Source: Schmidtea polychroa
Taxonomy: Eukaryota
Length of the DNA stretch: 64,000 nt
Reading direction: 5' to 3'
Assembly (NCBI GenBank): GCA_044892525.1
Contig: CM097888.1
Location: 12,896,001-12,960,000, forward strand
The translations under genes were made by a program, and so were the position numbers. Numbering within the stretch: the first letter of the stretch is position 1; each line of letters opens with the position of its first letter. The notes beneath the pieces were generated by a model that was not told the origin of the DNA, did not search any database, and saw only the letters and a program-made list of their open reading frames with translations. Shown here piece by piece: positions 7,906 to 64,000 of this stretch.

Positions 7906-7949
<44 letters not shown>

Positions 7950-28376: not shown

Positions 28377-30681
28377 AAGGTTGTAATAAAAAATATATAA
28401 TATTAAAACAATTTAAATTGTTTTAAAATGAGATACTTTATTTAACTTAAATAAATAATATTTTTTATAGATTTTTAAAATGGAAAAAGATTCAAAAATT
28501 TGTCATAATAATATAATTTAAAATTAAATTTAACAAGTATGAAATTGTAAAATTTTCTTGTACATAACACAATTATCTTAAAAGTTATATTAGTTTCTAA
28601 ATAGTTTGAACAACATATATATTTTTTCAATCATAAATATAAATGCCTATCACAAATACTTAAAATCCAATATTTTGAAATTCAATATTATATGACGGTA
28701 TTTATATAATTTGAAAATATCTAACTGAATTGTAACACAAATCTAATTTTTTATTAAATTATTAATTTTAATTAAAGCTTTTCTATGAGGAAAATATTAA
28801 TTTTAAAAATTATTTTAAATAAGCTTATGCAAATAAGTATTTTGTTCTCAATGTTAGATTTGTGGCGGTCTGAATTGGCTCAGGATTTCAAGTGGTATTG
28901 CTGGATATATCGTCTTAATTGAAACTTACCAATTTATAAAACAATAATTCTCAACCGTTTTTTGATAACGATACCTTTTTAATAATTTAGAAATATTAAA
29001 TAATTTTAAATTAAAATATTTTAAAATCTCCTTTTAACACATAGATTTGCAACAAATTAAAAATAATTTATTATTTAAATTTTAATTTTCAAAAAATATT
29101 TTTTAGTATAAAAAATTTATATTTTATAAATTTGCTTAAAAATCTGTATTTTCTATAATTATTCTATCCTACTTGACAATGACGGGAAAATTGCAAAAAT
29201 ATTTGAGTGGCGCTTTCTTATAATTAAACTATTGCCACGTATATTTAATTCTTGATTTATTGTTTAGTTAATTATTAGTATTTTATCATATTACCTAAAC
29301 TATTATAACTATTAATCATTTTAGTTTGATAATATATATTTTTTGATTTGTTTTATATTTATCATTTTTTTGAAATAATTGATGACACCATTTATTAATT
29401 TTTCTTAATGTTGGTGCTTAGGGGGTGTGTCATATAAATATTCAAGGGTTGTTTATGGATTTGGAATCGACTCTTTCCTAAACTCTTTCATTATTATTTT
29501 ACTTTATACCATCTGCGTATCCATGGCAACAACCATGTTGGTAATGTACACAGTGGCTGAAAATCAATGAGCAGATGAACTCTAATACTAGAACTACTCC
29601 TCATTGTATTTTCATTTTCGAGTTCTGGACTGCCTATAGAAGGTCTTACGTCACTGTTCATTATCTCTCTTTTCTTAGATGTGGCAAATATGTGCAGAGA
29701 GTACGGTGTCTGGTGCGAGTTGAACAAGGTTCGTTACGGAAAACCCGTTGTGTAATAGAAATAACTGCTCTGTCTGGAGGTTGAGTAAGAGTGATCAGAG
29801 TCATAGTGTGAGAACAGTGTTTAAAAAACGTGTACGTTAGAAGGAGGTGTATGAAGATAATTGTCGACTTTACGGTGAAAAAAACTGTTTTTGATATTGT
29901 TGGGTACGTTTGCAGAGGAAATGTTACGGAAAGAGTCGTTATCCCTTTTATGACTTTCGTAATATTTGAAAATTAATATTTGATAATAATACTTGATAAT
30001 ATTTAATATAATATGAAACTTGATAAAAATATTATTACAAAACTCTTTTTATAATATTTGTTAATGTTTAATATAATATTCGATACAATATTTAACTAAA
30101 ACTTTAAATTGTATATATTTGATAGAGTGCAATTAGATGAAATAAGGAATGCAAACAATTTAATAAAACTTACTTCAGCCAGGAACACTTCTGATACCAT
30201 TGTCGTGGTGGAGCTACCCGCACAGCAAGCTAATAATCGGACAAATAGATTAATTGAAAGTTCCACATAGTATAATCCAATTAAAAATTTCGAAAAATAA
30301 ATTTTCATATTTATTTGCGATTGTATTGTTGGGCTGAGTCGAAGGGTAGTTGGGAAATTAGGGCAAACTTAACTAAAATAAAATAAAAAATAAAAACAAA
30401 TAAATTGACAAATAAAATAGAATAAAACATAAGAAAAACAATAATTAGAAAATAGGAATTAAAACAAAAAATATAAAGATGAGAAAAAATTAAAATAGGA
30501 CAATAGAATGGCGGAAAACAACGTAAAATATAGTAAATAATAAGAAAATTAAGGAAAATAAATAAAAACATAATTTTAATAAAGAAAGTAAGAAGAAATA
30601 ACTAAAAACAAGGAAAATAAATTAAATTAATAAAATTAAGCGGTACTCAATTCTAATTGGTCCGCGCAAACAAAAAATTAA

Positions 30682-30791
30682 TATATAAGCAGGCATTAAA
30701 AACATAACAATTACTGTTAATCAAACCACCTCAATAGGTAAGTGAAATTTAAACAAGACTACTGTTAATCAAACAACCTCAATAGGTAAAT
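30682..30791 (+). promoter_or_regulatory. Candidate LTR core promoter and 5' splice donors
   Basis: TATATAAG at 30682; a 30-bp direct repeat (48-bp period, 30712 and 30760) whose copies end in AG|GTAAGT (30738) and AG|GTAAAT (30786); a further G|GTAAGG at 30953. Confidence 0.5.
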
Positions 30792-33191
30792 CTATTCTAC
30801 GACAGAACAGAACTCCAGCAACTAACGCACGATAACTCACGAGGACAATTCCAAGATTCAAGAGATTTTTACAGAACCAGACGATATTCGAGCATTAACT
30901 GATTCGACATAGTACCCTTTTCGACTCAGCCCATACTTGTAGCAATCCTTCGGTAAGGATTTTTGATTGCTTATTTTGAATTTTTAAGTAATGCGTATAG
31001 TTTAATAATATTTTTAATTTAAAAACTGGTTTTTCTTTTCGTTTGATTTTCGAATGCTTTACTTAAATTAATAATTTGCTTAATAATAAATGAATTAAGA
31101 ATTATTGATCTTTTATGAATTAATTTTTATGAATTATTATTGGAGACTATTCAATTTTGCGAGAAACGTGGCGTTGAGATACTCTATGTCATGGTGTGAG
31201 GTGCCTTCGGGAGCTCCACCGGTGGACATAGGGTATTTCAATCACGCAGCTAGATTGGGCCGAAATGTGAGGGCTTCTTCACGGGTCCAATTGCTGAAGG
31301 TGCGACTAAAATCTATAGGTAAATGGTGGCAGAAAATTGATAGTCATGTAGTGATTGAAAACAAAGATATGTAAGAAAGGAATCGGAGAATTTCGATGTA
31401 TTCGCGCAGTGATTGAGGGTGTCACACTATCGTTTTCGACTGCCGTTTTTGCTAAGCTTAAATTTTTCTCCATCATCAATGTAAGTTGTGCGTCAAAAAG
31501 TGTTCAAACCTTAGTGAGGCTATCTGTGACCTATCTTCGATGTTCATACTTTTCACTTAAGATCTGTTTCGACCAATTGTTAGTCTAAGACCTTTTGAAC
31601 TGGTATTCCGTTCATCTAAAAGTTCTCTTAAAGACATAGTTGCAAGGGAGTTCAAAGTAGATTGCTTCAGACAAGTATTAGGATTACTCGAAATGACTGT
31701 TTGTAAATAAATGGTAGAACCATGTAAAATGATTTAATCCAAAAAGTTATTCAGAATTGCATAAAACGAGTTTGTTCCAAATAAAAGCTTAAATTACATA
31801 AAATGATTCGCTATCATAAATTTTTAGAATTCTATATAAAAGGATTTACATACAATTAATTATCATGATTACATAAACTATTGGCATCAAATAATTTAAA
31901 AATGAAAAATGCAACCAATTCGAGCCAAGAAAAATATATTTCTTCAAGTTAGCCGATGATCTTGTTAATTAAATAAAAAATTCCAGTATTTCATGGGGTT
32001 GGCAATCCAGCAGGGATAGGTAGAAATCCTCCAGCACTTAGAGAGTAGATCGATAAACTAGGTTTGAGGAATTAAAGACGAAAAATCCACCCTTGGAGCA
32101 AGCTATATCCAACGTTTGCAATACAGATAATTATAATTTTTCCAATAATCCGGTGAGAATTAGTAAACCATCATCATATGCAGTAGAATTGTGAGCGATT
32201 ACGCGGTAGATAAAATTCTGAGAGAATGCCATCATGCAAACATTTAACACCTACATTTGTAGTGACGAGTATAAATAAGCGTGTGACAGCGCAACTTGCA
32301 TGCGTCACCAGTTGCAGACATACCTAGTAGCCAAGTACAGTGGGCAAAGTCACACACGCATCTACTCCTGAAAAACCAGACCGAACACACCAGATGGAGT
32401 TTCTATTAACTAATTAAACTACCGACAGGTATCGGATTTCACCGCTCCGGATTAAATGTCAACCACCGGGCTGACATTTCCTTATCCACCTAGCAGGAAT
32501 GGTCGGCTACTAGCTCACATTGATACCGTGCTCAGTTATCATAAAGGCAAAGTCTTTTAACGCTAAACCCGATCATAATCATGATTATTCTCTCTTTATT
32601 ATCTTAGCATGAATGGCATAGAAATTATTTCATTTTTTGACATAATTGTCATTAACATTAATATCGAATATTATTAAACAAATATTATTTAAACCGGGTA
32701 AAACACATATGCGAGTAATTTGAGAGAACGAATAAATAATTAAAAATTTAAATAACCTTCCGTTTATCCTGTAGGAACTAATCAACAGACATTATGGACC
32801 CCCTTTTCCATAGATAGTCACTCGACCCCAGTATATGATACACTCATCAAAATCACTCGTTCGGGGGGGGGAAGTCAACAATTCAACTCGATTCTCAATA
32901 AACGTGAAATAATGACTTCAAGCGGATTATATAAATAATCATTTTCATCGACCTAGAATTTCTCTCACTAATGGTAATATCTTCCTTTCCTTGTGCGAAA
33001 TGTGGTTTGAGCGATTTATCCTCTTACAGTTAAAGATCCAAAAGGTATGAGGATCCATCGTGCAGTAGAACTTGTCTTGACTAGTAAACCCATATTTTTG
33101 TCTATGATCAGTAAAGTCGGAATGTGGTCAGATGATGACACTCCCGTCGATTTAATTATTCTCATTTTCATTTTTTCCACAGTCACTCAAA

Positions 33192-33941
33192 ATGTTGCCA
33201 AATTCCAAGACCGTTCTTCGACCTTGTTTTTCTTGCTCCGACAAGAATTCAATTATCAAGGAGCTCCAGGCCCAGATCGGAAAGCACAAAAGAAAGATAG
33301 ATGAGTTAGAGGGGACATGGTTTAGTCCCACCCAGATGAAGGAGGTTCAGAAGAAGCTGCACCGAAGCGAGTACTGTAGAGACGCGTTGATTTCCGAGAG
33401 TCGGGCGCAGAGGAGCCTGATAAAAGAGCAATCGGAGGCGCTGCACAAATTATACGTCCAGGCAGCAACTACAAGGAAGATCGCGAAGATCCCAATTAAT
33501 GAAGCCAGTAATCTTTTCCCAGCGCATCATGATATCTCTGGCGGATCTTCTTCTCCAGTCGGAAAGTCCTGCCATGGGTGCGTAGAGACCGAGCTCTCAC
33601 CTAAAGAACCAGAAATTATCTGTACCGGAACCAGTAAAGTGCTACCTGCGATAGCATCCACCTCCGCAGCACCCCCGACCAATCCAACGGCATCGAAGCC
33701 AAAACGTCGGCAATTATCGAGAGCCGAACGCAAAAAGAAACAGCGGGAACGCGTAACCGCCAAACAGAACCAGCAATCGTCGGATCATCCAATCAAAGTC
33801 ATCAACCCTCCTGCAGCAATTGATTTAGCATCAGTGATCTCAGGGCGAATCATCTCCGCCGCTGGTGTTACCTGGGAGGAAAACGCCTCTGAGTTTTTCG
33901 ATTTGGAAGATCTATTGGCAGACTCGGAGTGGGAGAAATGA
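33192..33941 (+). CDS. LTR-encoded 249-aa protein (CxxC, coiled coil, Arg/Lys-rich motif, acidic tail), function unknown
   Basis: Intact in both LTRs; GC-richer than its flanks; strong acceptor TTTTCATTTTTTCCACAG ends 9 nt before the ATG. Confidence 0.7.
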   Translation: MLPNSKTVLRPCFSCSDKNSIIKELQAQIGKHKRKIDELEGTWFSPTQMKEVQKKLHRSEYCRDALISESRAQRSLIKEQSEALHKLYVQAATTRKIAKIPINEASNLFPAHHDISGGSSSPVGKSCHGCVETELSPKEPEIICTGTSKVLPAIASTSAAPPTNPTASKPKRRQLSRAERKKKQRERVTAKQNQQSSDHPIKVINPPAAIDLASVISGRIISAAGVTWEENASEFFDLEDLLADSEWEK

Positions 33942-34075
33942 GAACTTCCCCGTAAAAAGTCTTCGTTCTCTGAATTGACCTGAACATTGTCTGATAACAT
34001 TTTACCTTGTCTCTTTTCCCGTTGTCGTGAACTTTATTGTATAGGTGTTAGATATATTTGTGTGATAATCTTAAT

Positions 34076-34115
34076 AATAAACCATTTTTGTCTGCATACG
34101 TTTTTTTTGTGTTCA
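34076..34115 (+). terminator. Candidate LTR polyadenylation signal
   Basis: AATAAA at 34076-34081 followed by a T/GT-rich tract, 135 nt after the LTR ORF stop. Confidence 0.5.
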
Positions 34116-34512
34116 TCTTAAGACAGTTGAGTTGAAATTGGTAAATGGTATTGAGAGTCATAAAATTATGAGGAGCATTAGTCAGTTGGTAAACTCAGCT
34201 AGAAATATTGCGATGGGGCGACGGAATGAGTAGACGTAAGTCCTTCTATCGGCAGTCAGGGTTGGGAAGTCGAGGCCTCAGTAAGGAGTAGTCCGAAGGA
34301 GCTGGCTCACCTGCTTACTGGCGTCTCGCCGGCATAGCACAGTTCCAACGTGAAGCAATTCACGGGTGCTATGTTGGAGTGTAAGTTATGTACGGGTCCC
34401 GCTCGGCGATGACCAAATAAATGACGGGCGAAATCGAGGTGGGCATTCATCCTCTAGACTAAAGCTGCACTAGAAAGGGGTCATCCGAGTAGTGTACCCG
34501 CAACATAATTTT

Positions 34513-34532
34513 TGGGGGCTCAGCCGGGATTT
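34513..34532 (+). promoter_or_regulatory. Primer binding site, tRNA-Pro type
   Basis: TGGGGGCTCAGCCGGGATTT, 7 nt after the LTR end; 18/20 identical to the complement of the common animal tRNA-Pro 3' end (TGGGGGCTCGTCCGGGATTT). Confidence 0.85.
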
Positions 34533-34832
34533 AGATTGAAATTTCCATTGACTAGTGTAAACTGGATAAGGATGTTATTGAGTGAATTTCTGTCGAATAG
34601 AGTGAACTCACCGGGGATCAGTGATTTCAATGGGTTAGCGAGTGCAAATTGACTAATGCTTATCGAATCTTATTATAAATCACGAATAGAAAATAATAAA
34701 ATTAAAAATATAAATAAAGCAAATTTAATGATGGAGAAATAAGATAAAAGTAAAATAATGATAACGAGTTAGAAAAGAGAATGTTTGACGAAACGAAGTC
34801 ATATATTACTGAAACATTTTTTTTTAATAGAC

Positions 34833-35318
34833 ATGACGGAATTCGTGGACCCGATACAACAACTAATCAACTTCATAAACATCGAGAATGACTCCCTTAA
34901 AACGCTGACACAAAAAAGAGAAAGAATTAACATCATACTACTTCAAGCAATCGGGCAAACACCAGCCGTCCCCAACCACATGTTATTAGCCACAGGACTA
35001 AGTCACCCAGAGGGGAAGGTAAACCCGGAAACCGTGTATCAATGGTATCAAGAGAGATTGAACCACCCAGCATTAAATCTTGATTATCAACGTATAAAAG
35101 ATCCACTAAATACCATATCAGATACAATCGAGCGGAAAATACAAGAAAAACTGACTCTACTACGAACTTGTCGTGCTTGTAAACTTCGTCCTATTCGCGT
35201 ACTGTTTTTGCCGTGTGGACACCTCAGTCACTGCGAAGAATGTGTGAACGATTTAAAACGATGTACGATATGTAGGCATGAAATAAAAGAAACTCATATG
35301 GTTTATTATGGTGAATAA
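34833..35318 (+). CDS. 161-aa protein with C-terminal IAP/MDM2-type RING finger (putative E3 ligase)
   Basis: CRAC..RPIRVLFLPCGHLSHCEEC...LKRCTICR.EI at the extreme C-terminus; first ATG at 34833 follows a T-tract TAG acceptor. Confidence 0.85.
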   Translation: MTEFVDPIQQLINFINIENDSLKTLTQKRERINIILLQAIGQTPAVPNHMLLATGLSHPEGKVNPETVYQWYQERLNHPALNLDYQRIKDPLNTISDTIERKIQEKLTLLRTCRACKLRPIRVLFLPCGHLSHCEECVNDLKRCTICRHEIKETHMVYYGE

Positions 35319-35881: not shown

Positions 35882-36207
35882 TGAGCTGTTGAATAGTGCC
35901 AGCCAGTCGTAAGATCGAGTTGTTGAATAGTCCAACCGATCAGAAGGAGGAAGATTGAGCTGTTGAATAGTGCCAGCCAGTCGTAAGATCGAGTTGTTGA
36001 ATAGTCCAACCGATCAGAAGGAGGAAGATTGAGCTGTTGAATAGTGCCAGCCAGTCGTAAGATCGAGTTGTCGAATAGTCCAACCGATCAGAAGGAGGAA
36101 GATTGAGCTGTTGAATAGTGCCAGCCAGTCGTAAGATCGAGTTGTCGAATAGTCCAACCGATCAGAAGGAGGAAGATTGAGCTGTTGAATAGTGCCAGCC
36201 AGTCGTA
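35882..36207 (+). repeat. 74-bp tandem repeat, about 4.4 copies, dimeric (34+40 bp)
   Basis: Units start at 35882, 35956, 36030, 36104, 36178; both subunits share YGAGYTGTYGAATAGT. Confidence 0.95.
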
Positions 36208-37573
36208 AAGGCCTAGAAAAGCGAGAGATAGCAGTTAAGCTACAATGAGCTAATATCTGAATTAATAGAGAAAGGGAATATTAAAGCTAGCTAGAAACAA
36301 ATTGAATGTAATTACGGAAATTTGAGTTTAGAGAGGAAATAAACGAGCTCGTGGAAAAGATAATAAGATTATAATGAAAAAGGAAAGGGAAGAAGGAAAC
36401 GAATTAAAGAGATAATGGAAAATAAAGAATAGGCGAAACGATGATAATGAGTAAAGAGGAAAGTAACCAACTAATTAAAGGGATCCCAGTGAGGTAGAGA
36501 AACTCTGCGGAATATTTTTTTTTGGTTAAACCGGGAAAATGCATTTTATTGGTTCCAGAGTAGAACCGAGCGTAATAATAGTAAATATGAAAAGTAAAAT
36601 AGCGACAACAGCGCAAAAGGAATAGGAAAACGAAGGGGGGTAATAAGCAGAGACCGACAACGACCTATTTTTACTATAATTGATAACGAATAGATAATTA
36701 TTACGACTTGATAGATAATTGTTACTACCCCATATAGATAATTTAAAATCGACGAAAAATTCGGGCTGATGGGAGATTATAACCCGCGGAAGTAATTGCA
36801 TAAAAAATAGGGGAAGCATAAACAGAACCTAAAAGGTGTCTGTGTTCGAACGTTGTTGAAAGAATGATGAAGTCGTGTAAGCAAATGCAACACGAGATCA
36901 TTTTTTCATTTTAGATATCAAACCAATCCAGTCAACCAAGACAATCCAGAACCTGCACAAAAGGAATTCGAAGAAATCGACAATCGACCAAGAATAAATT
37001 CATTCAGAACCCGCACCGAGAGACACAGCAACCGGAAGACTCCAGAACGGAAGAAGATACAGATAGCGATATCTCCAACTTCGAACGAATCATCGATATA
37101 TTCAACCTCATAATATTAGCAGCCATCTGTCAAGGACTAGTGAATCTCCTCAGAATCACAGTAGCAGATCCATACAGAATATTTATCGAAGGAAACACAA
37201 TCAGAACCGAACTCGTCCAATTCAATAGCCGCTAATTACCAAGAAGCGTAAGAAAGGAATCACGGATAAACCCAATCTTAGATCTTCAAGTAAGCCAGGA
37301 GACGTATTATTTTCAGGAGACGAATTACAACAACTCAAAAGAGGACGATCTATTAAACAGCAAAGAGGAATATCGCAAGGATCAAGAAGAACCAATCAAG
37401 TACCTATATTTGACCAAGAAAATCTCGGATACACCCCTAGTCGATCTCGAAGCAGAGAAAGTCTGTCCGACATCACTAATAGTTTAGCAACGTCAACCGA
37501 GGAATTATCAGCCCAAAGTTTAGTCACATCGTTAGACAATTTAAAAGAAACAGACGAATCTAGAACACCAATC

Positions 37574-40500
37574 ATGACGAATGTCGTAAAAACCGACGAG
37601 TATAAAGAAAAGTTCAGAGGAGAACCGTTCAACGGAAATGCAAACAAGTTAGCAACGTTCATAACTAATTTTGAAGTTTATATCACTGTATGTGGATGGA
37701 CACCCGAAGCAATTAGTAAAAGGATGCCGTTGTTTTTGTGCGATAGCGCATTAGAAGTATATTTAGAAGCTAAAGAGAGAGATACGAAATTAGAAAAGTG
37801 GGAAGATATCAAAACATTCCTGAAGAAAACCTTCGGAGCCAGTAAGCCAATCAACCAGGCGTTGGGCGAACTAGCAAATAGGAAACAAAGAGCAAACGAA
37901 TCGATAACATTATATGCCAGTGAATTGCGGAGATTAGCGAAGAAAGCAATGAATGGAAAATTACCCGAAGAAAATCTGATCGGTTATTTCATAGAGGGAT
38001 TACGCCGAGAAGAAGTAAGAGCCTCAGTAGGTTGTCAAATGTGCAAAACATTAGAGGAAGCCATAGATTGGGCTACAAGATGCGAGCTCCACCTTCCAGC
38101 TCAAATGAATATTATGCAAGAGGAGGGAAGGATAATGACAGCAATAGCGAAAGCGGATAACGGAGATAACAACAATCAAGAACCGAAAATGAATCAATTT
38201 ATACCAGGAGCGCACCAAATTTTCAAACCACCACAAGGACGATCAAATGGGAATAATGGTAATCGTAACAACCCGAATAATGAGAACAATTTTAATAATC
38301 GACGAAATATGAACGATAACAAGCAGTGTCGAACATGCGGTAAACCAGGACACTGGGACAGAGATTGCTATAGAAATTCAAATTGTAATCGTTGCGGACG
38401 GCGTGGACATACCGAAAATGTATGCCAATTGAGAGGTTGTTTTAACTGTGGTCAGCCAGGTCACATCTCCAGAGATTGCCGAGAAAGGGGCCAACAACAA
38501 CGACCACCACAGCGAAATAATAATTATATGGCGAATCCGCAACGACAAAGTAACCCTAGCGAAGGAAAACAAATGAACGTTATGCAGGAAATCTCGCAGA
38601 TGAAACAGATGATGCAACAAATGATGAGACCGAGACCGGAATCAGCACCACAACAAACCCAGAATATACGTATGATGAGGAGTACCGAAAATCTCAACAA
38701 TTATGAAGTGCATCAACATGTACAAGAATGGCAAAGACTACAGGCCGAGGAAGAGAGGATAAAACAAGAACGCAACCAACAACGACAAGAACAACCATTG
38801 CGAATTAATATGATGAAGTTAGTAAAAGACATGAAAAGCCAGTATTGCTACAATTACGGGAAAAACCCAAGGGTAGTACCCATGACTGAACCAGAAAAGG
38901 TAACAGAAACAACAACGGAAATGAAAACAGAGAATTCAACCACGATTTTGAAAGGAAACCAGAGAATTCAGAAAATATTCTGGAAAAAGATAAAAGATAA
39001 AATCGAAAAAGAACATAATAAAGCGAAAGCCGAGACAGAAGATGAAAATAACAAGAGCAAGGAACAAACCAGTCAACTAAACCACCAAATGCTACAAGAA
39101 TTAGAATCAGAAGAAACAACGATATTCGAAAGAAAGAAACTAAAGAGAGTACCAAGGATGAGAAATTTGCAAATCAATATGATGAAAAGGACAAAAGATG
39201 TAGCATCGTCAGACGAAGAAGAAGATTATGTAAGTAGTTTGGGTGGAGAAATACTACAGCTAAACGAAATAAGCGAACCTCCAAAAGGGGAAATCAAAGA
39301 GGAAGAAAGCGAAAGCGAGATAACAAGTGGAAGTGAAGACGAGGATATCGAAATAAAGTTGAGAAAAGCAAGGGAGGAAGCGATAAAACAGGTAGCCGAA
39401 ATACTCCCGGCGGTAGTGAGAAACCAAGAGTTCATCGACGTAATATCATTCAGGCGATTCGTGCAAAAAGTGATGAAATTGGAAAGAAACGAGAAAGATT
39501 TAATACCAAACGAGGAAAAATCAATTATAAAAAAGTATATGGAAAAAATGAAGCAGGCAGATACCACGCGGTATGTAATAAAAATCGGAACGAGTAGAGG
39601 ACTTGAAAGAATGTGGATAAAAAATACAGTCACCGACGAACTTTTCGATTGGATACGAGAACATTTGGGAAATTCGAGAAAGAAAGAATATCTGTATCAA
39701 TACCAAGGAGAACAGATTAAACCAGATATGCACTTGGTAGACGCACTAATATGGCCCGGAGAAACGCAAATACTGAAGTTGCATAAAGAAAAACAACCAG
39801 CCAACCTTTACGATTGGGCCAAAGATGCCAAGGCAGAATATGATTTTAATATCAAATTGAAATTAGAACAAATAAAACAATGTACTCTGAGACGAAACCT
39901 GGATAAGCTGATCAAACAAATTCAAGAACAAGTAGAAGACAACTGGGAATTACTCATCACTAGACGAGCCCCAGCCATGTACGAACTAATGAGCCGATTG
40001 CGAGATACAGAAATGCTCCGGATGAGTGATTGGAGAACCATAAATTTGATCCACAAATATGGAAGGTTAAAAGAAACCCAGCCACAGAGGTTGGAAATAA
40101 CCATATGGTTACCGAACGAAGAAAAACGACGAATAAAAATGAGCAATCGGAGTACAGTGGATGACTTGGTATCAAAGATAAACCAAGAGATAACGGAAAA
40201 GGTACGTAGCGAAAGTAGTGATGGTATGGTGGATGATGTAGTCCTGATGTACGATAAAATAATATTACGAGCAGAAGACGACACCTCGTTAAGCGAATTG
40301 GGTATGTGGGACAATCATCAGATCATCAGGATAGTACCAATGGATGAATTTCGAACAAGAGATGTAATCTATCAAAAAGAAATACGAGACCGGATGAAAA
40401 CGTTATATCAAAAATCTACAGAAATAATTGAAATCCACCAACAATGGTTAAAAGAAAAAGAACTACAAGGAAAAATCACGAAATTAAGCACCAGATCCTG

Positions 40501-51587: not shown

Positions 51588-51947
51588 ATGGATCAAGGAA
51601 ATAACGAAATGAACCACAATACAGTAACTGAAGAATTATGGAAGCAACAATGTGCCGTATTAGCACAATTAGTGTCCAATTTGCAAGAACAAGGATTGAC
51701 GATGCACAGAAACCTAATCGAGAGTATGAATAGAGGATTTAGTTATTTGAAGATAATTGAAGACCAGAGGTTGAAAATCGAACAAATGCAAAGAGAGATA
51801 GAGAGGATAACCCAATATAGCCGTAGACAGGAAATTGAACTAAACAGAATGATGGAGGAAGCAGAACAGACAGAAATAGAAGACTGGTCGGAATGGTTAA
51901 TGAATAGAGAGGAGAGCGGACACGAAGCCGACTCTTCCGAACCCTAA
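51588..51947 (+). CDS. 119-aa coiled-coil accessory protein
   Basis: ATG at 51588; heptad-rich, acidic tail; same strand and codon style as the element. Confidence 0.65.
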   Translation: MDQGNNEMNHNTVTEELWKQQCAVLAQLVSNLQEQGLTMHRNLIESMNRGFSYLKIIEDQRLKIEQMQREIERITQYSRRQEIELNRMMEEAEQTEIEDWSEWLMNREESGHEADSSEP

Positions 51948-52032
51948 ACCAAACCTAGCTTAAAATGTAAATAACTGTAAATAAAATATCGAACCTGTAT
52001 CGATAAGAACTATATGTACATATAATTATAGA

Positions 52033-53614: not shown

Positions 53615-54670
53615 ATGACACAAGAGAAACTAACCGAAACTGCGATAGCCCCAACCAATGTCAACAAGACACAAATTCCCCGAGAACATAACAAAAAATG
53701 GAACAGAGTAATGTTCCAACTAACTAATCTCACCCGAAATCACATCGAAGAAGCTAGAGAAGATGAGAATAGTCAATACCAATGGTTAATACACAACTTA
53801 AGAGCGGAAGCAGAAGCATGCAAAAGAGCATCAAAATGGGCGTCACTAGAAAATACCCGCCAAGAAGCACACAGCCACTACTTAAAGCAGCTAGTGCAGG
53901 AAGCGAGAAAGAGACTTACCGATGAGAACACCAAGCGCGAAGCGGAAAAACAAATAGAAGACAGGAAAATGATGCACTTAGTGGCAGAAGCGAGAAAATG
54001 GAAAAGACAAAGCAATGAAATGAAAAAAGAGATGAAAGAATTGCCCATGAGACTCGGATATGAGAGCGAACAGGGCAAATGGGAGGAGAATTTAATAATA
54101 AAGGAAGAATTGAAACGGTTGAGAAAGGTCGCCGCCCGAAGTCAAACCTGGCAAACAAAGGCTATGGAATTTGAGCGACATTTGGCAATAAAATGCGACA
54201 TAAGAGAGCACGAGAATGCCGCAATGGAAGGGATGATAACCCAACAAGCAGGACGGATTGTGGAATTAGTAAATCAGGTCGAAGAGATGAAAAGAGACCT
54301 TAATGGATTACAAGGATCGTTAGAACAAAGAAACATGGTCCTAGCGGGAAAAAACAGAAAATTAGAAAACGAGAGGAAAATGTATACCGAAAATATCAAA
54401 AACTTGGAAATAGAAATTGAAAAATGGAAGGGCGACGAGAAAATCAAGGCCTTAGATAGACAAGTAGAGGCGAAAGACGAAGAGACAAGGTATCTCACTT
54501 ATCTGCTCGACGAAGAGCTGAATATCACTCGAGCTCTAAGAGACGAAGTTAGTGAATTGAGAGCTCAAATCCCCCAATATTACCTACCCTATGACCCTAT
54601 TGCGATACAGCTGCATCCAGCGGTCGATAGTGACGAAGGTTATGTGGGACAGGAGGAAACCTTCGTATAA
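53615..54670 (+). CDS. 351-aa coiled-coil accessory protein
   Basis: Long stop-free ORF, E/K/R-rich heptads. Confidence 0.75.
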   Translation: MTQEKLTETAIAPTNVNKTQIPREHNKKWNRVMFQLTNLTRNHIEEAREDENSQYQWLIHNLRAEAEACKRASKWASLENTRQEAHSHYLKQLVQEARKRLTDENTKREAEKQIEDRKMMHLVAEARKWKRQSNEMKKEMKELPMRLGYESEQGKWEENLIIKEELKRLRKVAARSQTWQTKAMEFERHLAIKCDIREHENAAMEGMITQQAGRIVELVNQVEEMKRDLNGLQGSLEQRNMVLAGKNRKLENERKMYTENIKNLEIEIEKWKGDEKIKALDRQVEAKDEETRYLTYLLDEELNITRALRDEVSELRAQIPQYYLPYDPIAIQLHPAVDSDEGYVGQEETFV

Positions 54671-54783
54671 GGGTGAATAAAAAGATAAAAACAAAAATCG
54701 GGACGTATATCCCAAACAAAAAAATTAAAGTATTGTAAAAGTATTCAAGGGACTGTAACCCGAACTATTAAAATTTTATATAA

Positions 54784-55545
54784 ATGCATAAGTATAAGTC
54801 GCACTATAGCGCACCATTAACTGTACATATTACAGATATGAAAATCGAGGAAATAATAGAAATTACGAGCGACGTGGAAGAGGGAGAGATTGAGGCAGAA
54901 ACAACAGAAACACAAACGTTAAAGGCCAAGTTACGGGAAGAGAGGGACGAAAACGAGAGACTAATAAACAAATATATAGAAGACCGAAAAATGATTAAAA
55001 TACTAAAGAAGGAGTGCGAAGCGTTAGGAGAAATAAAGAGAGAAGCTGAAGAGAAGAATGAATGGTTGCAAGAACAACGAACACGAGGAAGAAACTGGGA
55101 AAAGATTGCAGAGGAACTATGGCAAGAGAGGGCAAGCTTCAAGGCAGAAGAAGTAATCCAAGATTATTGGAAAACAGAGGCGAAAGAACACCAAATAACT
55201 ATAAATAAATTAAATCGACAATTGGAGGAAAAACAACGAGAAAGTGAGGAAATGAAGAAATGGATTCGCAAGTACCAAGAGATCGAGAGAAAACAACAAC
55301 AACAACAACAACGAAACCTTTCGCAGGAAAACGAACAAGATTTCCTACAAATCGAACTAAAAAGGAATCTCGACAAAAAACGGGAAGAAATTAAGAGACT
55401 GAAAAAGGAGATAAGGCACATGAAAAGGGAGGCCCGTGAAAAGAACAGACAGTTGGAAATGCTGCCCGAGTTAAGACACAGAGTCATTAAAGCGGAATCC
55501 ACCCTGATGAGAATCGCCGAAAATAACCCAAACCAGAATCATTAA
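54784..55545 (+). CDS. Coiled-coil accessory protein (likely start ATG 54838)
   Basis: Long ORF with E/K-rich heptads and poly-Q; ATG 54838 follows TTACAG. Confidence 0.72.
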   Translation: MHKYKSHYSAPLTVHITDMKIEEIIEITSDVEEGEIEAETTETQTLKAKLREERDENERLINKYIEDRKMIKILKKECEALGEIKREAEEKNEWLQEQRTRGRNWEKIAEELWQERASFKAEEVIQDYWKTEAKEHQITINKLNRQLEEKQRESEEMKKWIRKYQEIERKQQQQQQRNLSQENEQDFLQIELKRNLDKKREEIKRLKKEIRHMKREAREKNRQLEMLPELRHRVIKAESTLMRIAENNPNQNH

Positions 55546-55586
55546 ATTAAGGGTCACTAAAACCAATTGTAAATAAACCATAATGA

Positions 55587-56156
55587 ATGTATAATAGTAT
55601 CATGCGAGGCGAGATGATGATAACAATGACGGTATTGATGATTCTGACGGAGAACAAACAAGTAAACGCCCAACCGAAAATCGTGCGAGATTACCGAAAT
55701 CAAAATCAAGAACCTAAACGAGAATCCGGCCAATGCACATACCCTATGACAGTAAAAATCCATATCATCCAAACCCTTCAATCAACCCGTTCACACATCA
55801 ACAACATCCAAACAATGTGTAAAAAGAATCCCATTTGTAAAATGATAAACAAACAAATCCTCGAACAAATCCAACAATTCGACCAGTTAGAACAACAAAT
55901 GCAACAAGAGAATTTTGAAAATCTTGTAGAAAAGCCAAAAACACCTCCCGAAATCAATGACACCCATTATCTCATATATGTGGTGATCGCAGAAACCCTC
56001 CTCCTATGTCTACCAATAATCATGAAGATTTACGAAGTTAGAAATAAATGTAGAATCTCGACACCAATAAGAGTAACCTCGAACAGAAATCCTCAAGAAG
56101 TGCCGCTGACAAATCTTAACCCAACCCCATTCCGACCTCGAATCCCGAGTAACTAA
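55587..56156 (+). CDS. Small type I membrane protein candidate
   Basis: Signal-like MMITMTVLMILTENKQVNA|Q; Cys-containing ectodomain; TM YLIYVVIAETLLLCLPIIM; Pro-rich tail. Confidence 0.65.
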   Translation: MYNSIMRGEMMITMTVLMILTENKQVNAQPKIVRDYRNQNQEPKRESGQCTYPMTVKIHIIQTLQSTRSHINNIQTMCKKNPICKMINKQILEQIQQFDQLEQQMQQENFENLVEKPKTPPEINDTHYLIYVVIAETLLLCLPIIMKIYEVRNKCRISTPIRVTSNRNPQEVPLTNLNPTPFRPRIPSN

Positions 56157-59100
56157 CCAATCCAGCCGAATTCTAACAATCAGACCTATCTCAACATCAA
56201 TACCCGAACCAACCAACAACCGCCAGCAGAAGCATCAAATGGTTAGCAGTTCATAAACTCTAACTCAAACATTGGTGTTATCATATGCAGAAACTTTTAT
56301 TGTATATACAAACTATCACCTTAAGTGATACTTGCTTGGTCTTGATTTGACCTATATCTTAGAATAAAATTGTTTTTGTTATTGTAGTATAATTGTTTCG
56401 ATATATCCTTTTTATGAATGCATGAAGTAAGATAACTATGCAATTGCGGGACGCAATTTTGATGGGTCCCCGAGTGATTTGTTGGGCTGAGTCGAAGGGT
56501 AGTTGGGAAATTAGGGCAAACTTAACTAAAATAAAATAAAAAATAAAAACAAATAAATTGACAAATAAAATAGAATAAAACATAAGAAAAACAATAATTA
56601 GAAAATAGGAATTAAAACAAAAAATATAAAGATGAGAAAAAATTAAAATAGGACAATAGAATGGCGGAAAACAACGTAAAATATAGTAAATAATAAGAAA
56701 ATTAAGGAAAATAAATAAAAACATAATTTTAATAAAGAAAGTAAGAAGAAATAACTAAAAACAAGGAAAATAAATTAAATTAATAAAATTAAGCGGTACT
56801 CAATTCTAATTGGTCCGCGCAAACAAAAAATTAATATATAAGCAGGCATTAAAAACATAACAATTACTGTTAATCAAACCACCTCAATAGGTAAGTGAAA
56901 TTTAAACAAGACTACTGTTAATCAAACCACCTCAATAGGTAAATCTATTCTACGACAGAACAGAACTCCAGCAACTAACGCACGATAACTCACGAGGACA
57001 ATTCCAAGATTCAAGAGATTTTTACAGAACCAGACGATATTCGAGCATTAACTGATTCGACATAGTACCCTTTTCGACTCAGCCCATACTTGTAGCAATC
57101 CTTCGGTAAGGATTTTTGATTGCTTATTTTGAATTTTTAAGTAATGCGTATAGTTTAATAATATTTTTAATTTAAAAACTGGTTTTTCTTTTCGTTTGAT
57201 TTTCGAATGCTTTACTTAAATTAATAATTTGCTTAATAATAAATGATTTGCTCGTTAAGAATTATTGATCTTTTATGAATTAATTTTTATGAATTATTAT
57301 TGGAGACTATTCAATTTTGCGAGAAACGTGGCGTTGAGATACTCTATGTCATGGTGTGAGGTGCCTTCGGGAGCTCCACCGGTGGACATAGGGTATTTCA
57401 ATCACGCAGCTAGATTGGGCCGAAATGTGAGGGCTTCTTCACGGGTCCAATTGCTGAAGGTGCGACTAAAATCTATAGGTAAATGGTGGCAGAAAATTGA
57501 TAGTCATGTAGTGATTGAAAACAAAGATATGTAAGAAAGGAATCGGAGAATTTCGATGTATTCGCGCAGTGATTGAGGGTGTCACACTATCGTTTTCGAC
57601 TGCCGTTTTTGCTAAGCTTAAATTTTTCTCCATCATCAATGTAAGTTGTGCGTCAAAAAGTGTTCAAACCTTAGTGAGGCTATCTGTGACCTATCTTCGA
57701 TGTTCATACTTTTCACTTAAGATCTGTTTCGACCAATTGTTAGTCTAAGACCTTTTGAACTGGTATTCCGTTCATCTAAAAGTTCTCTTAAAGACATAGT
57801 TGCAAGGGAGTTCAAAGTAGATTGCTTCAGACAAGTATTAGGATTACTCGAAATGACTGTTTGTAAATAAATGGTAGAACCATGTAAAATGATTTAATCC
57901 AAAAAGTTATTCAGAATTGCATAAAACGAGTTTGTTCCAAATAAAAGCTTAAATTACATAAAATGATTCGCTATCATAAATTTTTAGAATTCTATATAAA
58001 AGGATTTACATACAATTAATTATCATGATTACATAAACTATTGGCATCAAATAATTTAAAAATGAAAAATGCAACCAATTCGAGCCAAGAAAAATATATT
58101 TCTTCAAGTTAGCCGATGATCTTGTTAATTAAATAAAAAATTCCAGTATTTCATGGGGTTGGCAATCCAGCAGGGATAGGTAGAAATCCTCCAGCACTTA
58201 GAGAGTAGATCGATAAACTAGGTTTGAGGAATTAAAGACGAAAAATCCACCCTTGGAGCAAGCTATATCCAACGTTTGCAATACAGATAATTATAATTTT
58301 TCCAATAATCCGGTGAGAATTAGTAAACCATCATCATATGCAGTAGAATTGTGAGCGATTACGCGGTAGATAAAATTCTGAGAGAATGCCATCATGCAAA
58401 CATTTAACACCTACATTTGTAGTGACGAGTATAAATAAGCGTGTGACAGCGCAACTTGCATGCGTCACCAGTTGCAGACATACCTAGTAGCCAAGTACAG
58501 TGGGCAAAGTCACACACGCATCTACTCCTGAAAAACCAGACCGAACACACCAGATGGAGTTTCTATTAACTAATTAAACTACCGACAGGTATCGGATTTC
58601 ACCGCTCCGGATTAAATGTCAACCACCGGGCTGACATTTCCTTATCCACCTAGCAGGAATGGTCGGCTACTAGCTCACATTGATACCGTGCTCAGTTATC
58701 ATAAAGGCAAAGTCTTTTAACGCTAAACCCGATCATAATCATGATTATTCTCTCTTTATTATCTTAGCATGAATGGCATAGAAATTATTTCATTTTTTGA
58801 CATAATTGTCATTAACATTAATATCGAATATTATTAAACAAATATTATTTAAACCGGGTAAAACACATATGCGAGTAATTTGAGAGAACGAATAAATAAT
58901 TAAAAATTTAAATAACCTTCCGTTTATCCTGTAGGAACTAATCAACAGACATTATGGACCCCCTTTTCCATAGATAGTCACTCGACCCCAGTATATGATA
59001 CACTCATCAAAATCACTCGTTCGGGGGGGGGGAAGTCAACAATTCAACTCGATTCTCAATAAACGTGAAATAATGACTTCAAGCGGATTATATAAATAAT

Positions 59101-59352
59101 CATTTTCATCGACCTAGAATTTCTCTCACTAATGGTAATATCTTCCTTTCCTTGTGCGAAATGTGGTTTGAGCGATTTATCCTCTTACAGTTAAAGATCC
59201 AAAAGGTATGAGGATCCATCGTGCAGTAGAACTTGTCTTGACTAGTAAACCCATATTTTTGTCTATGATCAGTAAAGTCGGAATGTGGTCAGATGATGAC
59301 ACTCCCGTCGATTTAATTATTCTCATTTTCATTTTTTCCACAGTCACTCAAA

Positions 59353-60102
59353 ATGTTGCCAAATTCCAAGACCGTTCTTCGACCTTGTTTTTCTTGCTCC
59401 GACAAGAATTCAATTATCAAGGAGCTCCAGGCCCAGATCGGAAAGCACAAAAGAAAGATAGATGAGTTAGAGGGGACATGGTTTAGTCCCACCCAGATGA
59501 AGGAGGTTCAGAAGAAGCTGCACCGAAGCGAGTACTGTAGAGACGCGTTGATTTCCGAGAGTCGGGCGCAGAGGAGCCTGATAAAAGAGCAGTCGGAGGC
59601 GCTGCACAAATTATACGTCCAGGCAGCAACTACAAGGAAGATCGCGAAGATCCCAATTAATGAAGCCAGTAATCTTTTCCCAGCGCATCATGATATCTCT
59701 GGCGGATCTTCTTCTCAAGTCGGAAAGTCCTGCCATGGGTGCGTAGAGACCGAGCTCTCACCTAAAGAACCAGAAATTATCTGTACCGGAACCAGTAAAG
59801 TGCTACCTGCGATAGCATCCACCTCCGCAGCACCCCCGACCAATCCAACGGCATCGAAGCCAAAACGTCGGCAATTATCGAGAGCCGAACGCAAAAAGAA
59901 ACAGCGGGAACGCGTAACCGCCAAACAGAACCAGCAATCGTCGGATCATCCAATCAAAGTCATCAACCCTCCTGCAGCAATTGATTTAGCATCAGTGATC
60001 TCAGGGCGAATCATCTCCGCCGCTGGTGTTACCTGGGAGGAAAACGCCTCTGAGTTTTTCGATTTGGAAGATCTATTGGCAGACTCGGAGTGGGAGAAAT
60101 GA
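59353..60102 (+). CDS. Second copy of the LTR-encoded 249-aa protein
   Basis: Identical except P>Q and one synonymous change. Confidence 0.7.
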   Translation: MLPNSKTVLRPCFSCSDKNSIIKELQAQIGKHKRKIDELEGTWFSPTQMKEVQKKLHRSEYCRDALISESRAQRSLIKEQSEALHKLYVQAATTRKIAKIPINEASNLFPAHHDISGGSSSQVGKSCHGCVETELSPKEPEIICTGTSKVLPAIASTSAAPPTNPTASKPKRRQLSRAERKKKQRERVTAKQNQQSSDHPIKVINPPAAIDLASVISGRIISAAGVTWEENASEFFDLEDLLADSEWEK

Positions 60103-60620
60103 GAACTTCCCCGTAAAAAGTCTTCGTTCTCTGAATTGACCTGAACATTGTCTGATAACATTTTACCTTGTCTCTTTTCCCGTTGTCGTGAACTTTATTG
60201 TATAGGTGTTAGATATATTTGTGTGATAATCTTAATAATAAACCATTTTTGTCTGCATACGTTTTTTTTGTGTTCATCTTAAGACAGTTGAGTTGAAATT
60301 GGTAAATGGTATTGAGAGTCATAAAATTATGAGGAGCATTAGTCAGTTGGTAAACTCAGCTAGAAATATTGCGATGGGGCGACGGAATGAGTAGACGTAA
60401 GTCCTTCTATCGGCAGTCAGGGTTGGGAAGTCGAGGCCTCAGTAAGGAGTAGTCCGAAGGAGCTGGCTCACCTGCTTACTGGCGTCTCGCCGGCATAGCA
60501 CAGTTCCAACGTGAAGCAATTCACGGGTGCTATGTTGGAGTGTAAGTTATGTACGGGTCCCGCTCGGCGATGACCAAATAAATGACGGGCGAAATTGAGG
60601 TGGGCATTCATCCTCTAGAC

Positions 60621-63212
60621 CAGGGGTTCCCAAACTTTTACCAGTCGAGACCCACTATTTAGACCGCAAAGTTTTCACGACCCACCTGTAAATAAAACAA
60701 GAAAAAAGCTAAAAATGTTGATTTACATATTTATTTAACACGCATATTTAAGAATAATTAATAGGATGAATGAGATGAATGAGCCTGCTTTCTATTTTTT
60801 GCAATAACATCTTCGACATCTACTTTTATATTTGTTGTTATTAAGCGAAGTGAGTTTGATAGCTGTAATTTGTTGCGATATTTATTTTTTATTGCAATCA
60901 TTGACGAAAATGCAACCTCGCATAGATAAGAAGTTGTGAAAGGAAGCAATACTTAACGCTGCGGTGTGTAAAGTTGGATATGTGTTTTGCACCGATAACC
61001 AAAACTGTAACAATTTCGTACCGTCAAAATGTAATTTAACAACACTATCTTCGAATAGCTCAATTAATTCCTCATCCACTATCGTCGATATACCGGTAAC
61101 TAAACCACTTTGAAATGGATTTTGAACCCATGTATATTATTCTAGATTTTTCATTTCTCCATAGAAATAAAAATCAAAATTTTCTTTAAGTCTGTCCAAA
61201 TGCTCAATTATTAAAGAAATTAAATCGTTATTGGGCGTTACTTCATTTTCAATGATAAAAGTTTGGAATGTATCAAAGCAGTCATATTTATTTTCTTGAA
61301 CATTATTTTTCCACAACATAAGTTTTTTTGTAAAACCTTTTATTTTACCATGAACCGAAAATATATCAATTCCATTTGTTCCTTGTAATTGTAAATTTAA
61401 ATCGTTCAATTTCGAAAATATATCTGCTAAATAAGTCAGCAAAACTACATATTTCACATCGCGCAAATTTGATGTGTACTCATCTTGTTTATGTTCATGT
61501 AAATATATTGCTACTTCTTCGCGAAGTTCAACAAGTCTTGTCAGGACTTTGCCTTTCGATAGCCAGCGGACTTCTGTATGCAGCAGAAGAGATTTATGTA
61601 AACTTCCCATCTCTTCGCAGAGTTTTTGAAATAATCGTGATTGTAATGGTTTGCTCTTAATAAAATTTACAATTTTTATAGCAGTGGTCAAAACAGTATT
61701 TAGACTTTTTGGTATATTTTTGGATACTAACGCTTCTCTATGAATAGTGCAGTGAGTCCACGTTGCATTTGGACATTTTTGAAGACAACGTGTCACAGCA
61801 CCACACATTGCTTTTGCACCGTCGCTACATATTCCGACGCAGTTTTTCCAATCCAGTTTTTTCAATGTTATATAAGTGTCGAGCGTATCAAAAATTATTT
61901 CACCAGTTCCTCGAATGATTGGTTCACAAAATAATATGTCTTCAAAGAACTCGTTGCACCATATAAAACGTATGAAAATAATTAGTTGGGACAAACCTTG
62001 TACATCGGTTGATTCATCCAGTTGCAACGCAAAAAGTCCACTAACTTGAATTCTATGGATAAGCTTATTTTCTACCCATTCGGACATTTCATCAATTCTA
62101 CGAGCAACTGTGTTATTAGAAAGTGGAATTGATTCAACTTCTTTTAAGCTCTGCTCTCCAAACATAATTCCAACAGCATCTTTTATAGCTGGAAGTACTA
62201 ATGACTCTCCAATAGTGTGCGGTTTACCGGATTGTGCAATTCGCAAACTAATGAGATACGAGGCGAACATAGCCTTTTCATTAATGCTGATGAAGCGAGA
62301 AAATAGATTTTTTGAATTATTTAATTCCTGTAATTTGGTTTTAAAATAATCAATAGGCTTATTTTTTAAATCGGAATGTTTCGTCTCAAAATGTCGTATT
62401 AATTTGTTAGGTCGCATACTTTCATTAGCCAGAATTTCTTGACAAATAACACACTGTGGGCGTGGATCATCTTCTTTTCTATTCCATGTAAATCCAAATT
62501 TTAGATATTCAGAATCATATTTTCTTTGGCCACGTTTTGATGATTGCGAACTTGTTGAAGGATTCTCACCAAATTTTCTCTTATTATCTGTTTTTGTTGC
62601 TACAGAACCTTCTTTTTCTTTTTCATTTTCAATTGTTTGATTTTGCCCAGGAGTCTTTTTCAACCACTTATCCATCGCAGCAATGGTTCTTTAAAAATAA
62701 GAATATTAAGAACTTTATTTATTACATGAAATACTATAGCACTAAATTTAAAAAATACTTACATTTGATTTTAAATTATGTTTTTTTATTAACGAAACAC
62801 TTTTATTAACAATATATATAAACTTTTTTATTAACAACACAACACCGTACTTAGTCCAAAACAAAATTTGCACTGGTTGTCTGAATATTTAAAGTTTGTA
62901 ATCCTAAATTTCTAATTAACCGTTATTTGTGTTTGGTTGCCTGGTTAAAATGTAGAAAAATGGTTGCTATGATGCGATTATTAGAAACAAGTTCTAAATA
63001 CAAAAATTTGCTAAAAAGAAGTTTAATTTTTAAACCACCTAAAAATATGCAATAATTTTTTGTCGCAAACCTACTTATATATAAATATTGTGACAAGTTA
63101 AGTAAAAGCAAATTAATATGCTCAGTAATACAAATATTAAATTTTTGGCGACACACCGAAAATAGCTTCGCGACCCACCAGTGGGTCGCGACCCACACTT
63201 TGGGAACCGCTG
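60621..63212 (-). mobile_element. Buster/ZBED5-type hAT transposon inserted in the 3' LTR
   Basis: TIR CAGGGGTTCCCAAA / CAGCGGTTCCCAAA; 8-bp TSD CTCTAGAC (60613-60620, 63213-63220); single empty site at 34452-34459 in the 5' LTR. Confidence 0.95.
60758..62675 (-). pseudogene. hAT Buster-type transposase with one premature stop (61137-61139) and one frameshift (about 60950)
   Basis: BED finger CVIC..RHFETKH, LDESTD, SDGA, HC..HREAL, RWLS; the dimerization domain LLPFTTSYLCEVAFS continues in a shifted frame. Confidence 0.92.
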
Positions 63213-64000
63213 CTCTAGACTAAAGCTGCACTAGAAAGGGGTCATCCGAGTAGTGTACCCGCAACAGTATCATTTGTTTGTACTCTGTTCCAAGTTATTC
63301 ATTGAATTGGCATTTTTGTTGTTGATGTTTAATTGGTTGTTTATTGTTAAATCTGAATATGGTGGAGTTTTGTCTGTTGCTGCTGGTAAGGTAGCCATGT
63401 TGTTTTGTTTTTGTTTGAAAAAGAGCCAGTTTTTTAATTAATGTTATTTAACTCTTTGACGACGAATTTTAAAAAATGAAATTTCTGTAACTTTAACGAT
63501 AGAAATCAGCTATATAGCTTGTTTAAAATGTGTAATGTTGATTTTGTTGGGTTATTGAGTTGGTGATAAAATTTATTGTTACTCTGACTCCAAGCGTGTC
63601 TTTATATAATTCACAAATAACACTTGACAACAGAAATCTTTATTGATAATCACAAATAAACTTTCACTTGACAATGACAATAAATTCAACACTCTGCTGG
63701 GTGACTATACAGTGCTTATTGCAACACTCGGTGAGGAATAGCACTTTCGTATAACACCGGATTAAAAGATCACAAATTACTGATTGGTTTCTAAACTGGG
63801 ATTTTGAGCTGGTTGTTTTCTTTGACTTTCTTTCAAACTTTATTCAAATAATCAATAACTTCTTTTCGTTTTATTATTCAACTAATTTTTCTCTTCAACT
63901 TTTCTCCAATAATTATTTTCCACAATTATTTCCATTACAATTATTTTGACAATCGTTTGTCCAACAACGTTTCGTCCAACGTCTAATTTTCTCCAATAAT

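Follow-up and report, generated by a model that had tools for sequence, protein, structure and literature searches.

The window analysed here, a 64,000-nt stretch of the Schmidtea polychroa genome (GCA_044892525.1, contig CM097888.1, positions 12,896,001 to 12,960,000 of the forward strand), contains a long terminal repeat (LTR) retroelement that is probably a recent copy of a high-copy, env-carrying Ty3/gypsy family of the Burro lineage. The element likely buds membrane-wrapped particles, splices its small genes and rebuilds an LTR intron in each round of reverse transcription. We lean slightly towards reading the short intron-like unit in each LTR as a spliceosomal intron that an enveloped animal LTR element carries through reverse transcription. 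The terminal repeat R would be a first exon of about 26 nt, the tail of the intron would be a copy of that exon rewritten at each strand transfer, and the same donor would feed spliced accessory genes, including an orphan candidate nuclear regulator within the LTR. The giant size, the env-before-pol order and the cell-death cargo make this a further Burro example and are not new. The LTR gene and the intron unit, both new as far as the literature searched, deserve to be pursued further, and the LTR unit matters more than the giant-element headline.

The intron-like unit of the LTR

About 350 bp into the LTR, a predicted core promoter with its TATA box at 30682 is followed by a short direct repeat (Table 1). 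Copy 1 ends at AG/GTAAGT, and copy 2 forms the last 26 nt of a GT...AG spacer. Among the 41 LTR promoters examined, 37 have copy 2 within 2 mismatches (perfect in 36), and the exact repeat begins 28–31 nt past the TATA box in 35 of the 37. The spacer keeps a length of 44–52 nt across LTR types while its sequence differs. Only 7–10 of 20 letters of the exon blocks are common between LTR types, yet each block matches its own partner, and private changes, namely a 1-nt deletion (L012/L014) and a substitution (L100), are present in both copies. A strict test was passed at 14 of 30 sites chosen by promoter motif alone (20 of them selected for motif variety), with 7 different exon ends, and the shuffled-sequence control gave no units in 30 shuffles.

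In a scan blind to splice signals, copy 1 closes on AG/GTAA in 11 of the 16 repeat types; in the other five there is a mismatch before the AG/GTAA point or the repeat runs through it. One LTR type equals another minus exactly 31 nt, from the acceptor to a second TTTCAAG (67/70 matches at offset 31), as use of the later acceptor would leave. All 15 LTRs flagged as unpaired by a pattern search have copy 2, followed by different sequence. As the simplest reading, we infer that R may be a spliced first exon and that strong-stop DNA may jump to the tail of the intron, which would thereby be regained. The copying of spliced RNA should normally rid a retroelement of its introns. Built-in intron retention, if true, would give the 26-kb RNA access to host splicing and export and, going by general background, might perhaps evade silencing of intron-less transcripts. 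No description of such a unit turned up in the full-text literature searched, a scope outside which subscription journals lie.

A head-to-tail array of the window family shares LTRs between neighbouring copies (LTR-internal-LTR-internal-LTR; L001–L007, G000:C4:46.23–46.30 Mb). The first LTR of this array lacks exactly the spacer, and the next two keep it.

The LTR-encoded gene

An earlier reading made from the letters of the window (the sequence-only reading) had counted a gene within the LTR as part of a layout that it did not recognise. This gene, a 249-aa open reading frame (ORF), is real and under selection. Its coiled-coil-like part with WFSP and its basic stretch are found in three families and its acidic tail in two. 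It is still 249 aa long and 65% identical in an LTR type with an unalignable middle (0.90 synonymous and 0.20 nonsynonymous differences per site, pS and pN). An acceptor-like site at 33183, 9 nt 5' of the ORF, ranks 2 of 738. No homologue was found among 1.84 billion representatives, with Atlas leads of at most 0.85, and the paper searches, of the scope given above, found no description of the gene; the extended data of Grohme 2018 may hold LTR ORFs or start sites. Our guess is that the product could be a nuclear regulator, and the gene offers a concrete candidate trans-regulator of Burro elements.

A second LTR ORF, of 81 aa at 31129, was not accepted as a gene: the DNA is conserved, and coding is unsupported because all three frames are equally conserved. 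At 31149–31335, the two LTR types share a conserved DNA block that is surrounded by sequence which cannot be aligned; the block may represent a small gene or a cis element. An inverted copy of the first ~25 nt of the LTR is located at 30913–30940, ~590 bp into the LTR.

Proposed expression and life cycle

Because transcription is predicted to start about 30 nt past the TATA box, U3 would be short and most of the LTR would be transcribed leader. In the genomic RNA, the donor at 30738 would join the acceptor 48 nt away. Strong-stop DNA would end in exon-1 sequence, anneal to the matching tail of the intron at the 3' end of the RNA and copy the intron back. The same donor would splice to acceptors just 5' of the LTR ORF, the RING gene, the TRAF gene and the 351-aa ORF. 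Of 21 accessory start codons in families A, B and E, 11 have a YAG no more than 3 nt away, compared with 63 of 609 background ATGs; since the families are related, this enrichment is less significant than its nominal p of 2e-6 suggests. In this count the family B TRAF was scored at an upstream in-frame ATG (the homologous start also follows TAG), and the LTR ORF of the window, with its acceptor 9 nt upstream, was left out.

The polyprotein would be threaded through the endoplasmic reticulum at its hydrophobic segments, which lie near aa 1597, 2170, 4281 and 4545, and cut at the recurring [IM]NMM-like motifs. Cleavage would release Gag, the ubiquitin-like (UBL) domains, the Bcl-2-like domain, Env, Pol, the ankyrin units and a second membrane protein. 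In the producing cell, the TRAF, RING, UBL, ankyrin and Bcl-2-like proteins probably affect the host ubiquitin, NF-kB and cell-death pathways, and may do so in either direction.

Copies, selection and sister families

The sequence-only reading took this to be a young, enveloped Gypsy element and proposed a genome search for copy number; the young age was borne out, and the element proved to be multicopy. The LTR pair is 99.69% identical (4,142 columns, 5 mismatches, 8 gap bases). The search gave at least 150 copies of the Bcl-2-like region, with 150/150 scored matches (of 776 candidates) at ≥91% aa identity and 59 of the 150 within the same 4,732-codon open frame. With a reverse transcriptase (RT) probe, 40/40 scored matches (of 656 candidates) were at 98–100%. 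Five other copies compared at full length are colinear with the window, cargo included; their LTR pairs are 99.4–100% identical, and those of four more copies 99.97–100%. Contigs of four public runs cover the internal region as well; they contain no informative splice joint, which weighs neither for nor against splicing.

Env and nearly all of the cargo are under purifying selection. Within the family, pN/pS is 0.03–0.42 over 22 regions (env 0.06), and one further region is without synonymous changes. The 189-aa ORF shows the weakest selection, with stops in two comparisons. In family B, gene content and order match those of the window element, and the accessory proteins are 41–72% identical; against this family pS is 0.54–0.85 and pN 0.02–0.42, the synonymous sites being near saturation. 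A second LTR type of 3,864 bp, apparently more numerous, sits on a 94–98% identical internal region (L075–L084) and retains the 249-aa ORF; as a side reading, it may reflect LTR swapping between subfamilies.

Family E (L048–L051) is 88% identical to the window over RT and RNase H (RH), and the two group in an 8-row RT tree with support 100/98. Family E encodes MATH inside the polyprotein and a separate TRAF, giving two TRAF/MATH modules, along with a BIR-RING IAP gene and a RING-only ORF; the MATH in the polyprotein and the BIR-RING gene match the layout published for Burro1. Its LTR has an extra 121-aa AT-hook-like ORF, and the WFSP LTR gene is stop-broken in the copy seen. These comparisons provide further evidence of selection on the cargo, and of modules shifting between the polyprotein and separate genes across sister families.

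Structure of the element

The sequence-only reading described a single element at 30327..63266 with 4.18-kb LTRs, a target-site duplication (TSD), a primer-binding site (PBS), a 21,974-bp internal region, one stop-free 4617-aa ORF and six further ORFs on the same strand. Re-measurement reproduced each of these parts, with GTAT as the TSD and tRNA-Pro as the primer match, and all of the ORFs are present on the + strand, the LTR ORF twice. The span is indeed LTR-bounded; it contains a later 2.6-kb hAT insertion, so that the retroelement proper measures ~30.3 kb. The LTRs, TSD, PBS and the order protease (PR), RT, RH and integrase (IN) identify a Ty3/gypsy LTR retroelement.

Table 1. Features of the element and its insertion site, in window coordinates.
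Feature	Position	Strand	Basis or remark
TSD left, GTAT	30323..30326	.	Flank comparison; empty site with one GTAT in public run X3
5' LTR, TG...CA	30327..34505	+	4,179 bp; LTR-pair alignment
Predicted core promoter: inverted CCAAT (ATTGG) and TATA box	30656..30688	+	From sequence; arranged alike in other LTR types
Repeat copy 1, predicted first exon / R, 30 nt past TATA, ends AG/GTAAGT	30712..30737	+	
48-nt GT...AG intron-like spacer; last 26 nt (30760–30785) repeat copy 1	30738..30785	+	3' LTR counterpart 56891–56938
249-aa ORF: CxxC, coiled-coil-like part with WFSP, basic KPKRR stretch, acidic tail	33192..33941	+	Second copy 59353–60102
PBS, tRNA-Pro(TGG), 7 nt past LTR	34513..34530	+	Complementary to 3' arm of the genome's tRNA-Pro(TGG) genes
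161-aa ORF, C-terminal cIAP-type RING, no BIR	34833..35318	+	Pfam
74-bp tandem repeat, 4.4 copies	35882..36208	+	Repeat scan
ATG-free 115-codon frame, continuous with gag; possible N-terminal extension	37229..37573	+	Protein-level conservation
4,617-aa polyprotein ORF	37574..51427	+	ORF, Pfam
Gag capsid and three CCHC knuckles	37574..38563	+	Pfam
Three UBL domains: 39563–39793, 40082–40348, 41030–41248	39563..41248	+	Pooled alignment; fold prediction (UBL3)
Divergent Bcl-2-like domain, BH2 GGW kept, BH1 NWGR absent	41789..42268	+	Family profile
Envelope: signal-like segment, Monjiviricetes/gB-type fusion ectodomain, transmembrane helix	42362..44191	+	Pfam, hydrophobicity, Atlas
PR, RT, RH, IN core	44762..47593	+	Pfam
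Two ankyrin-repeat clusters	48452..49753	+	Pfam, family comparison
C-terminal predicted membrane protein: hydrophobic segment, Cys-containing region, transmembrane helix; no confident family	50414..51427	+	
119-aa ORF, no family, conserved in sister families	51588..51947	+	Pfam, family comparison
Full-length intronless TRAF, 462 aa	52033..53421	+	Pfam, homology
351-aa coiled-coil-like ORF	53615..54670	+	ORF, family comparison
253-aa coiled-coil-like ORF	54784..55545	+	ORF, family comparison
189-aa predicted membrane protein, weakest selection signal	55587..56156	+	Hydrophobicity, pN/pS
3' LTR, split by hAT	56480..63266	+	LTR-pair alignment
hAT DNA transposon, later insertion, not part of the retroelement	60621..63212	-	Terminal inverted repeats, 8-bp CTCTAGAC TSD, truncated transposase
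TSD right, GTAT	63267..63270	.	Flank comparison

An uninterrupted target with a single GTAT is present in three contigs of public run X3; because the flank is repetitive, this empty site confirms the TSD and not an insertion polymorphism. The primer, tRNA-Pro(TGG), is encoded in a long tandem gene array with ~475-bp spacing (L137, G000:C1 from 130.90 Mb), and the tRNA-Pro arm pattern has 2,186 matches genome-wide. No purine tract was found directly 5' of the 3' LTR (56455–56479), and a conserved GATGGGTCCCCGAGTGATT motif occupies these positions in place of a polypurine tract. The hAT entered the 3' LTR after integration and has 14-bp terminal inverted repeats, a TA-centred 8-bp TSD and a transposase with a stop near its C-terminus. 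Left of the element (1990–9321 and 20473–27255) there are several short ORFs and near-identical repeats of 400–500 bp.

Polyprotein and accessory proteins

The polyprotein follows the order gag-UBL-Bcl2-env-pol-ankyrin, within which Pfam places gag, CCHC, a Monjiviricetes fusion glycoprotein, PR, RT, RH, IN and ankyrins. The 659 nt 5' of the gag ATG contain no ATG against 2.4 expected, and the final 115 codons are kept in frame. An ATG-less ORF at 36915 was rejected as a gene, being frameshifted in 3 of 4 copies of the second LTR type. Between PR and RT, where the Burro lineage would have a dUTPase-like region, a conserved region (63% to family E) has no Pfam match.

The cargo listed in the sequence-only reading held up in full for the TRAF, the IAP-type RING, the ankyrin clusters and the fusogen, and in part for the others. 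The ectodomain of Env is a PF24664 fusion glycoprotein (Pfam, E 1.4e-70), and Atlas groups it with rhabdo/monji/gB glycoproteins at 0.92–0.96, a result of low recognition value. The TRAF is complete, with RING, zinc fingers, coiled coil and MATH; its C-terminal half resembles TRAF1/2/3 (about 1e-27), and its RING and zinc-finger half TRAF5/6. The IAP-type RING of the 161-aa ORF is confirmed as cIAP-type (E 1.6e-11), and Pfam finds no BIR in this ORF or in the polyprotein. For the Smc-like coiled coil that the Burro lineage would have, Pfam gives no match in the coiled-coil-like ORFs.

Ubiquitin-like domains stand for UBL3, whose predicted fold is that of ubiquitin (pLDDT 74, TM ~0.7). UBL1 and UBL2 are recognised through the pooled alignment only: neither matches ubiquitin when searched singly, and the single-domain UBL profiles find no ubiquitin in the PDB. 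The pooled profile does find ubiquitin and includes rows selected for their ubiquitin-like look. No C-terminal di-Gly was seen in the UBL domains.

The Bcl-2-like domain cannot be detected from the window protein alone. A 16-row family profile has only Bcl-xL/Bcl-2 among its top 60 PDB matches (best Bcl-xL, E 5.6e-4), and PF00452 is matched at E≤0.1 in 10 of 16 family members. BH2 is retained and NWGR is missing at the aligned position; as for the anti-apoptotic hallmarks of Bcl-2 and IAP proteins, the BH1 NWGR groove motif is absent and the 161-aa ORF is RING-only. A single-sequence structure model of the domain was discarded (pLDDT 44). A GRP AT-hook-like motif is located 5' of the domain (~41700–41760) in families A, B, D and E, and the signal-like segment of env that follows the domain may act as a tail anchor.

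Weighing of the interpretations

A number of observations weigh against a carried LTR intron in a Burro-lineage element. The other 16 of the 30 motif-picked sites fail the strict test; by eye, about 8 of these look intron-less and 4 look like damaged units, so the intron seems to be often lost and not essential. In two LTRs of one tandem array copy 2 shows two differences, and the 45-nt GT-AG spacer of family E comes without the repeat. No clear poly(A) signal adjoins copy 2, and acceptor-like sites are missing at the last two downstream ORFs in every family compared. The start site, splices and 3' end are predicted from DNA alone, the unit counts are non-independent because the compared families are related, and three within-family comparisons come from one tandem array. 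Placement in Burro is by published description, with the local family E as proxy. With no NWGR in the Bcl-2-like domain and no BIR accompanying the RING, canonical anti-apoptotic action is doubtful.

It is possible, if less probable, that the repeat pair arose neutrally, from strand transfer out of alignment or from local gene conversion at R, the GT-AG being incidental or a sub-genomic donor only. R is the usual place of template switching, family E has no repeat and many sites have no spacer, the unit is tandemly amplified at one site (L132), and GTAAAT directly follows copy 2 in the LTR type of the window. A neutral origin fits less well with repeat borders that both fall on independently predicted features (TATA+30 and AG/GTAA) in many unrelated sequences, with a spacer length that stays at 44–52 nt despite differing sequence, and with a 31-nt loss that terminates at the second acceptor-like AG. 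The downstream genes might also be freed from a polycistronic RNA by host spliced-leader (SL) trans-splicing in place of cis-splicing from the LTR donor, which we consider unlikely. A leader ending in AUG, of the kind known from flatworms, would open the ATG-free frame at 37229, which starts in phase right after an AG. The downstream ORF gaps of 41–193 nt are inside the 300-nt range of flatworm operons in which SL resolves polycistrons (PMC12582326), and the spliced mRNA of Cer1 receives SL1 (PMC3315495). Against trans-splicing, the LTR retains a strong cis donor, the frame at 36915, which also lacks an ATG, is the frameshifted one described above, and a search of the genome for a leader-joined copy of the 36915 exon gave no matches.

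The intron reading leaves the transmission of the element and the action of its cargo to be weighed separately. The proposal in the sequence-only reading of an infectious retrovirus-like lineage, taken here as one that passes freely from animal to animal and whose cargo blocks apoptosis and innate immunity in the manner of poxvirus and baculovirus modulators, appears rather doubtful. The fusogen is intact, of class III type and under strong selection, the full TRAF, cIAP-type RING, ankyrins, and ubiquitin and Bcl-2 folds are present, and integrated proviruses meddling with apoptosis and ubiquitination were already proposed by the authors of PMC6431247. A conserved env is equally expected for spread among the cells of one animal, PMC13524379 argues that env has anciently co-diverged, by vertical descent, with both pol and the host, and NWGR, BIR and di-Gly are absent. 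Infectivity and suppression of cell death or immunity are hypotheses, as in 2019. A chimeric region, which the sequence-only reading had named as a refuting finding along with copies lacking the cargo, or a single isolated capture of host genes is extremely improbable: no point in its favour was found, the five colinear copies on other contigs include the cargo (one was checked and has its own TSD), 150/150 scored copies carry the Bcl-2-like region, family B shares the gene order, and the internal region is also represented in contigs from four public runs.

Comparison with known systems

Burro/GYPSM1 is described in section 7 of PMC6431247 as exceeding 30 kb, with one 4,873-aa ORF and a gag with three knuckles. 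Its modules are MATH_TRAF, Ubi/SUMO-like, BCL2-like, BIR and ankyrin, with env in frame between BCL2 and PR, and these modules occur in the polyprotein or as accessory ORFs. The sequence-only reading was right to point to a Burro precedent for the ankyrin, BIR and BCL2-like theme; the env-before-pol layout with TRAF and UBLs, which it did not recognise, is already present there. Burro1–4/GYPSM1 of Schmidtea mediterranea and the Burro-like element of Dugesia tigrina share with the window element a length above 30 kb, multi-kb LTRs and one huge ORF (4,873 and 5,140 aa in the Burro kind, 4,617 aa in the window). Also shared are the large polyprotein with a three-CCHC gag, a UBL before the BCL2-like domain, env between the latter and PR, ankyrins, a TRAF/MATH module and accessory ORFs. 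Unlike Burro, the window polyprotein has no MATH and no BIR is present, the complete TRAF being a separate gene 3' of pol. None of three published BURRO1 oligos matches the window at ≤3 mismatches, and one primer has a single 2-mismatch match elsewhere in the genome. The window element is therefore best placed as a Burro-lineage family and not as Burro1, given the published layout, the grouping with family E and the failed BURRO1 oligos. The Burro text of section 7, apart from its figure, mentions neither an LTR gene nor an LTR intron.

With a Ty3/gypsy pol and a gB-type env upstream, the element also fits among the GAG-ENV-POL gB-type elements reported from flatworms in PMC13524379, six of them from S. 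mediterranea. That survey dropped LTR pairs more than 14 kb apart, and its main text contains neither "splic" nor "accessory". Smed_errantivirus_5 has the same gag-env-pol order and gB-type env, and its env stretch is the closest of the six by eye, at ~55% identity (~102/187 by eye); the window family is distinct from it in sequence.

In complex retroviruses and foamy-like endogenous retroviruses, accessory genes such as MMTV sag, HIV nef and foamy bel lie within the LTR or close to it. The window element resembles them in its extra ORFs with acceptor-like sites, one of these ORFs being in the LTR. Unlike them, it has a Ty3/gypsy pol and a class III fusogen, and its LTR ORF lies 3' of the predicted start, not in U3, and has no homologue. 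Penelope-like elements, for which Arkhipova reportedly described introns in 2003, are likewise retroelements that retain introns. In standard R-mediated minus-strand transfer a terminal repeat guides the first jump, as it would here; in contrast to that scheme, R would be a spliced first exon that pairs with the tail of an intron inside a true LTR.

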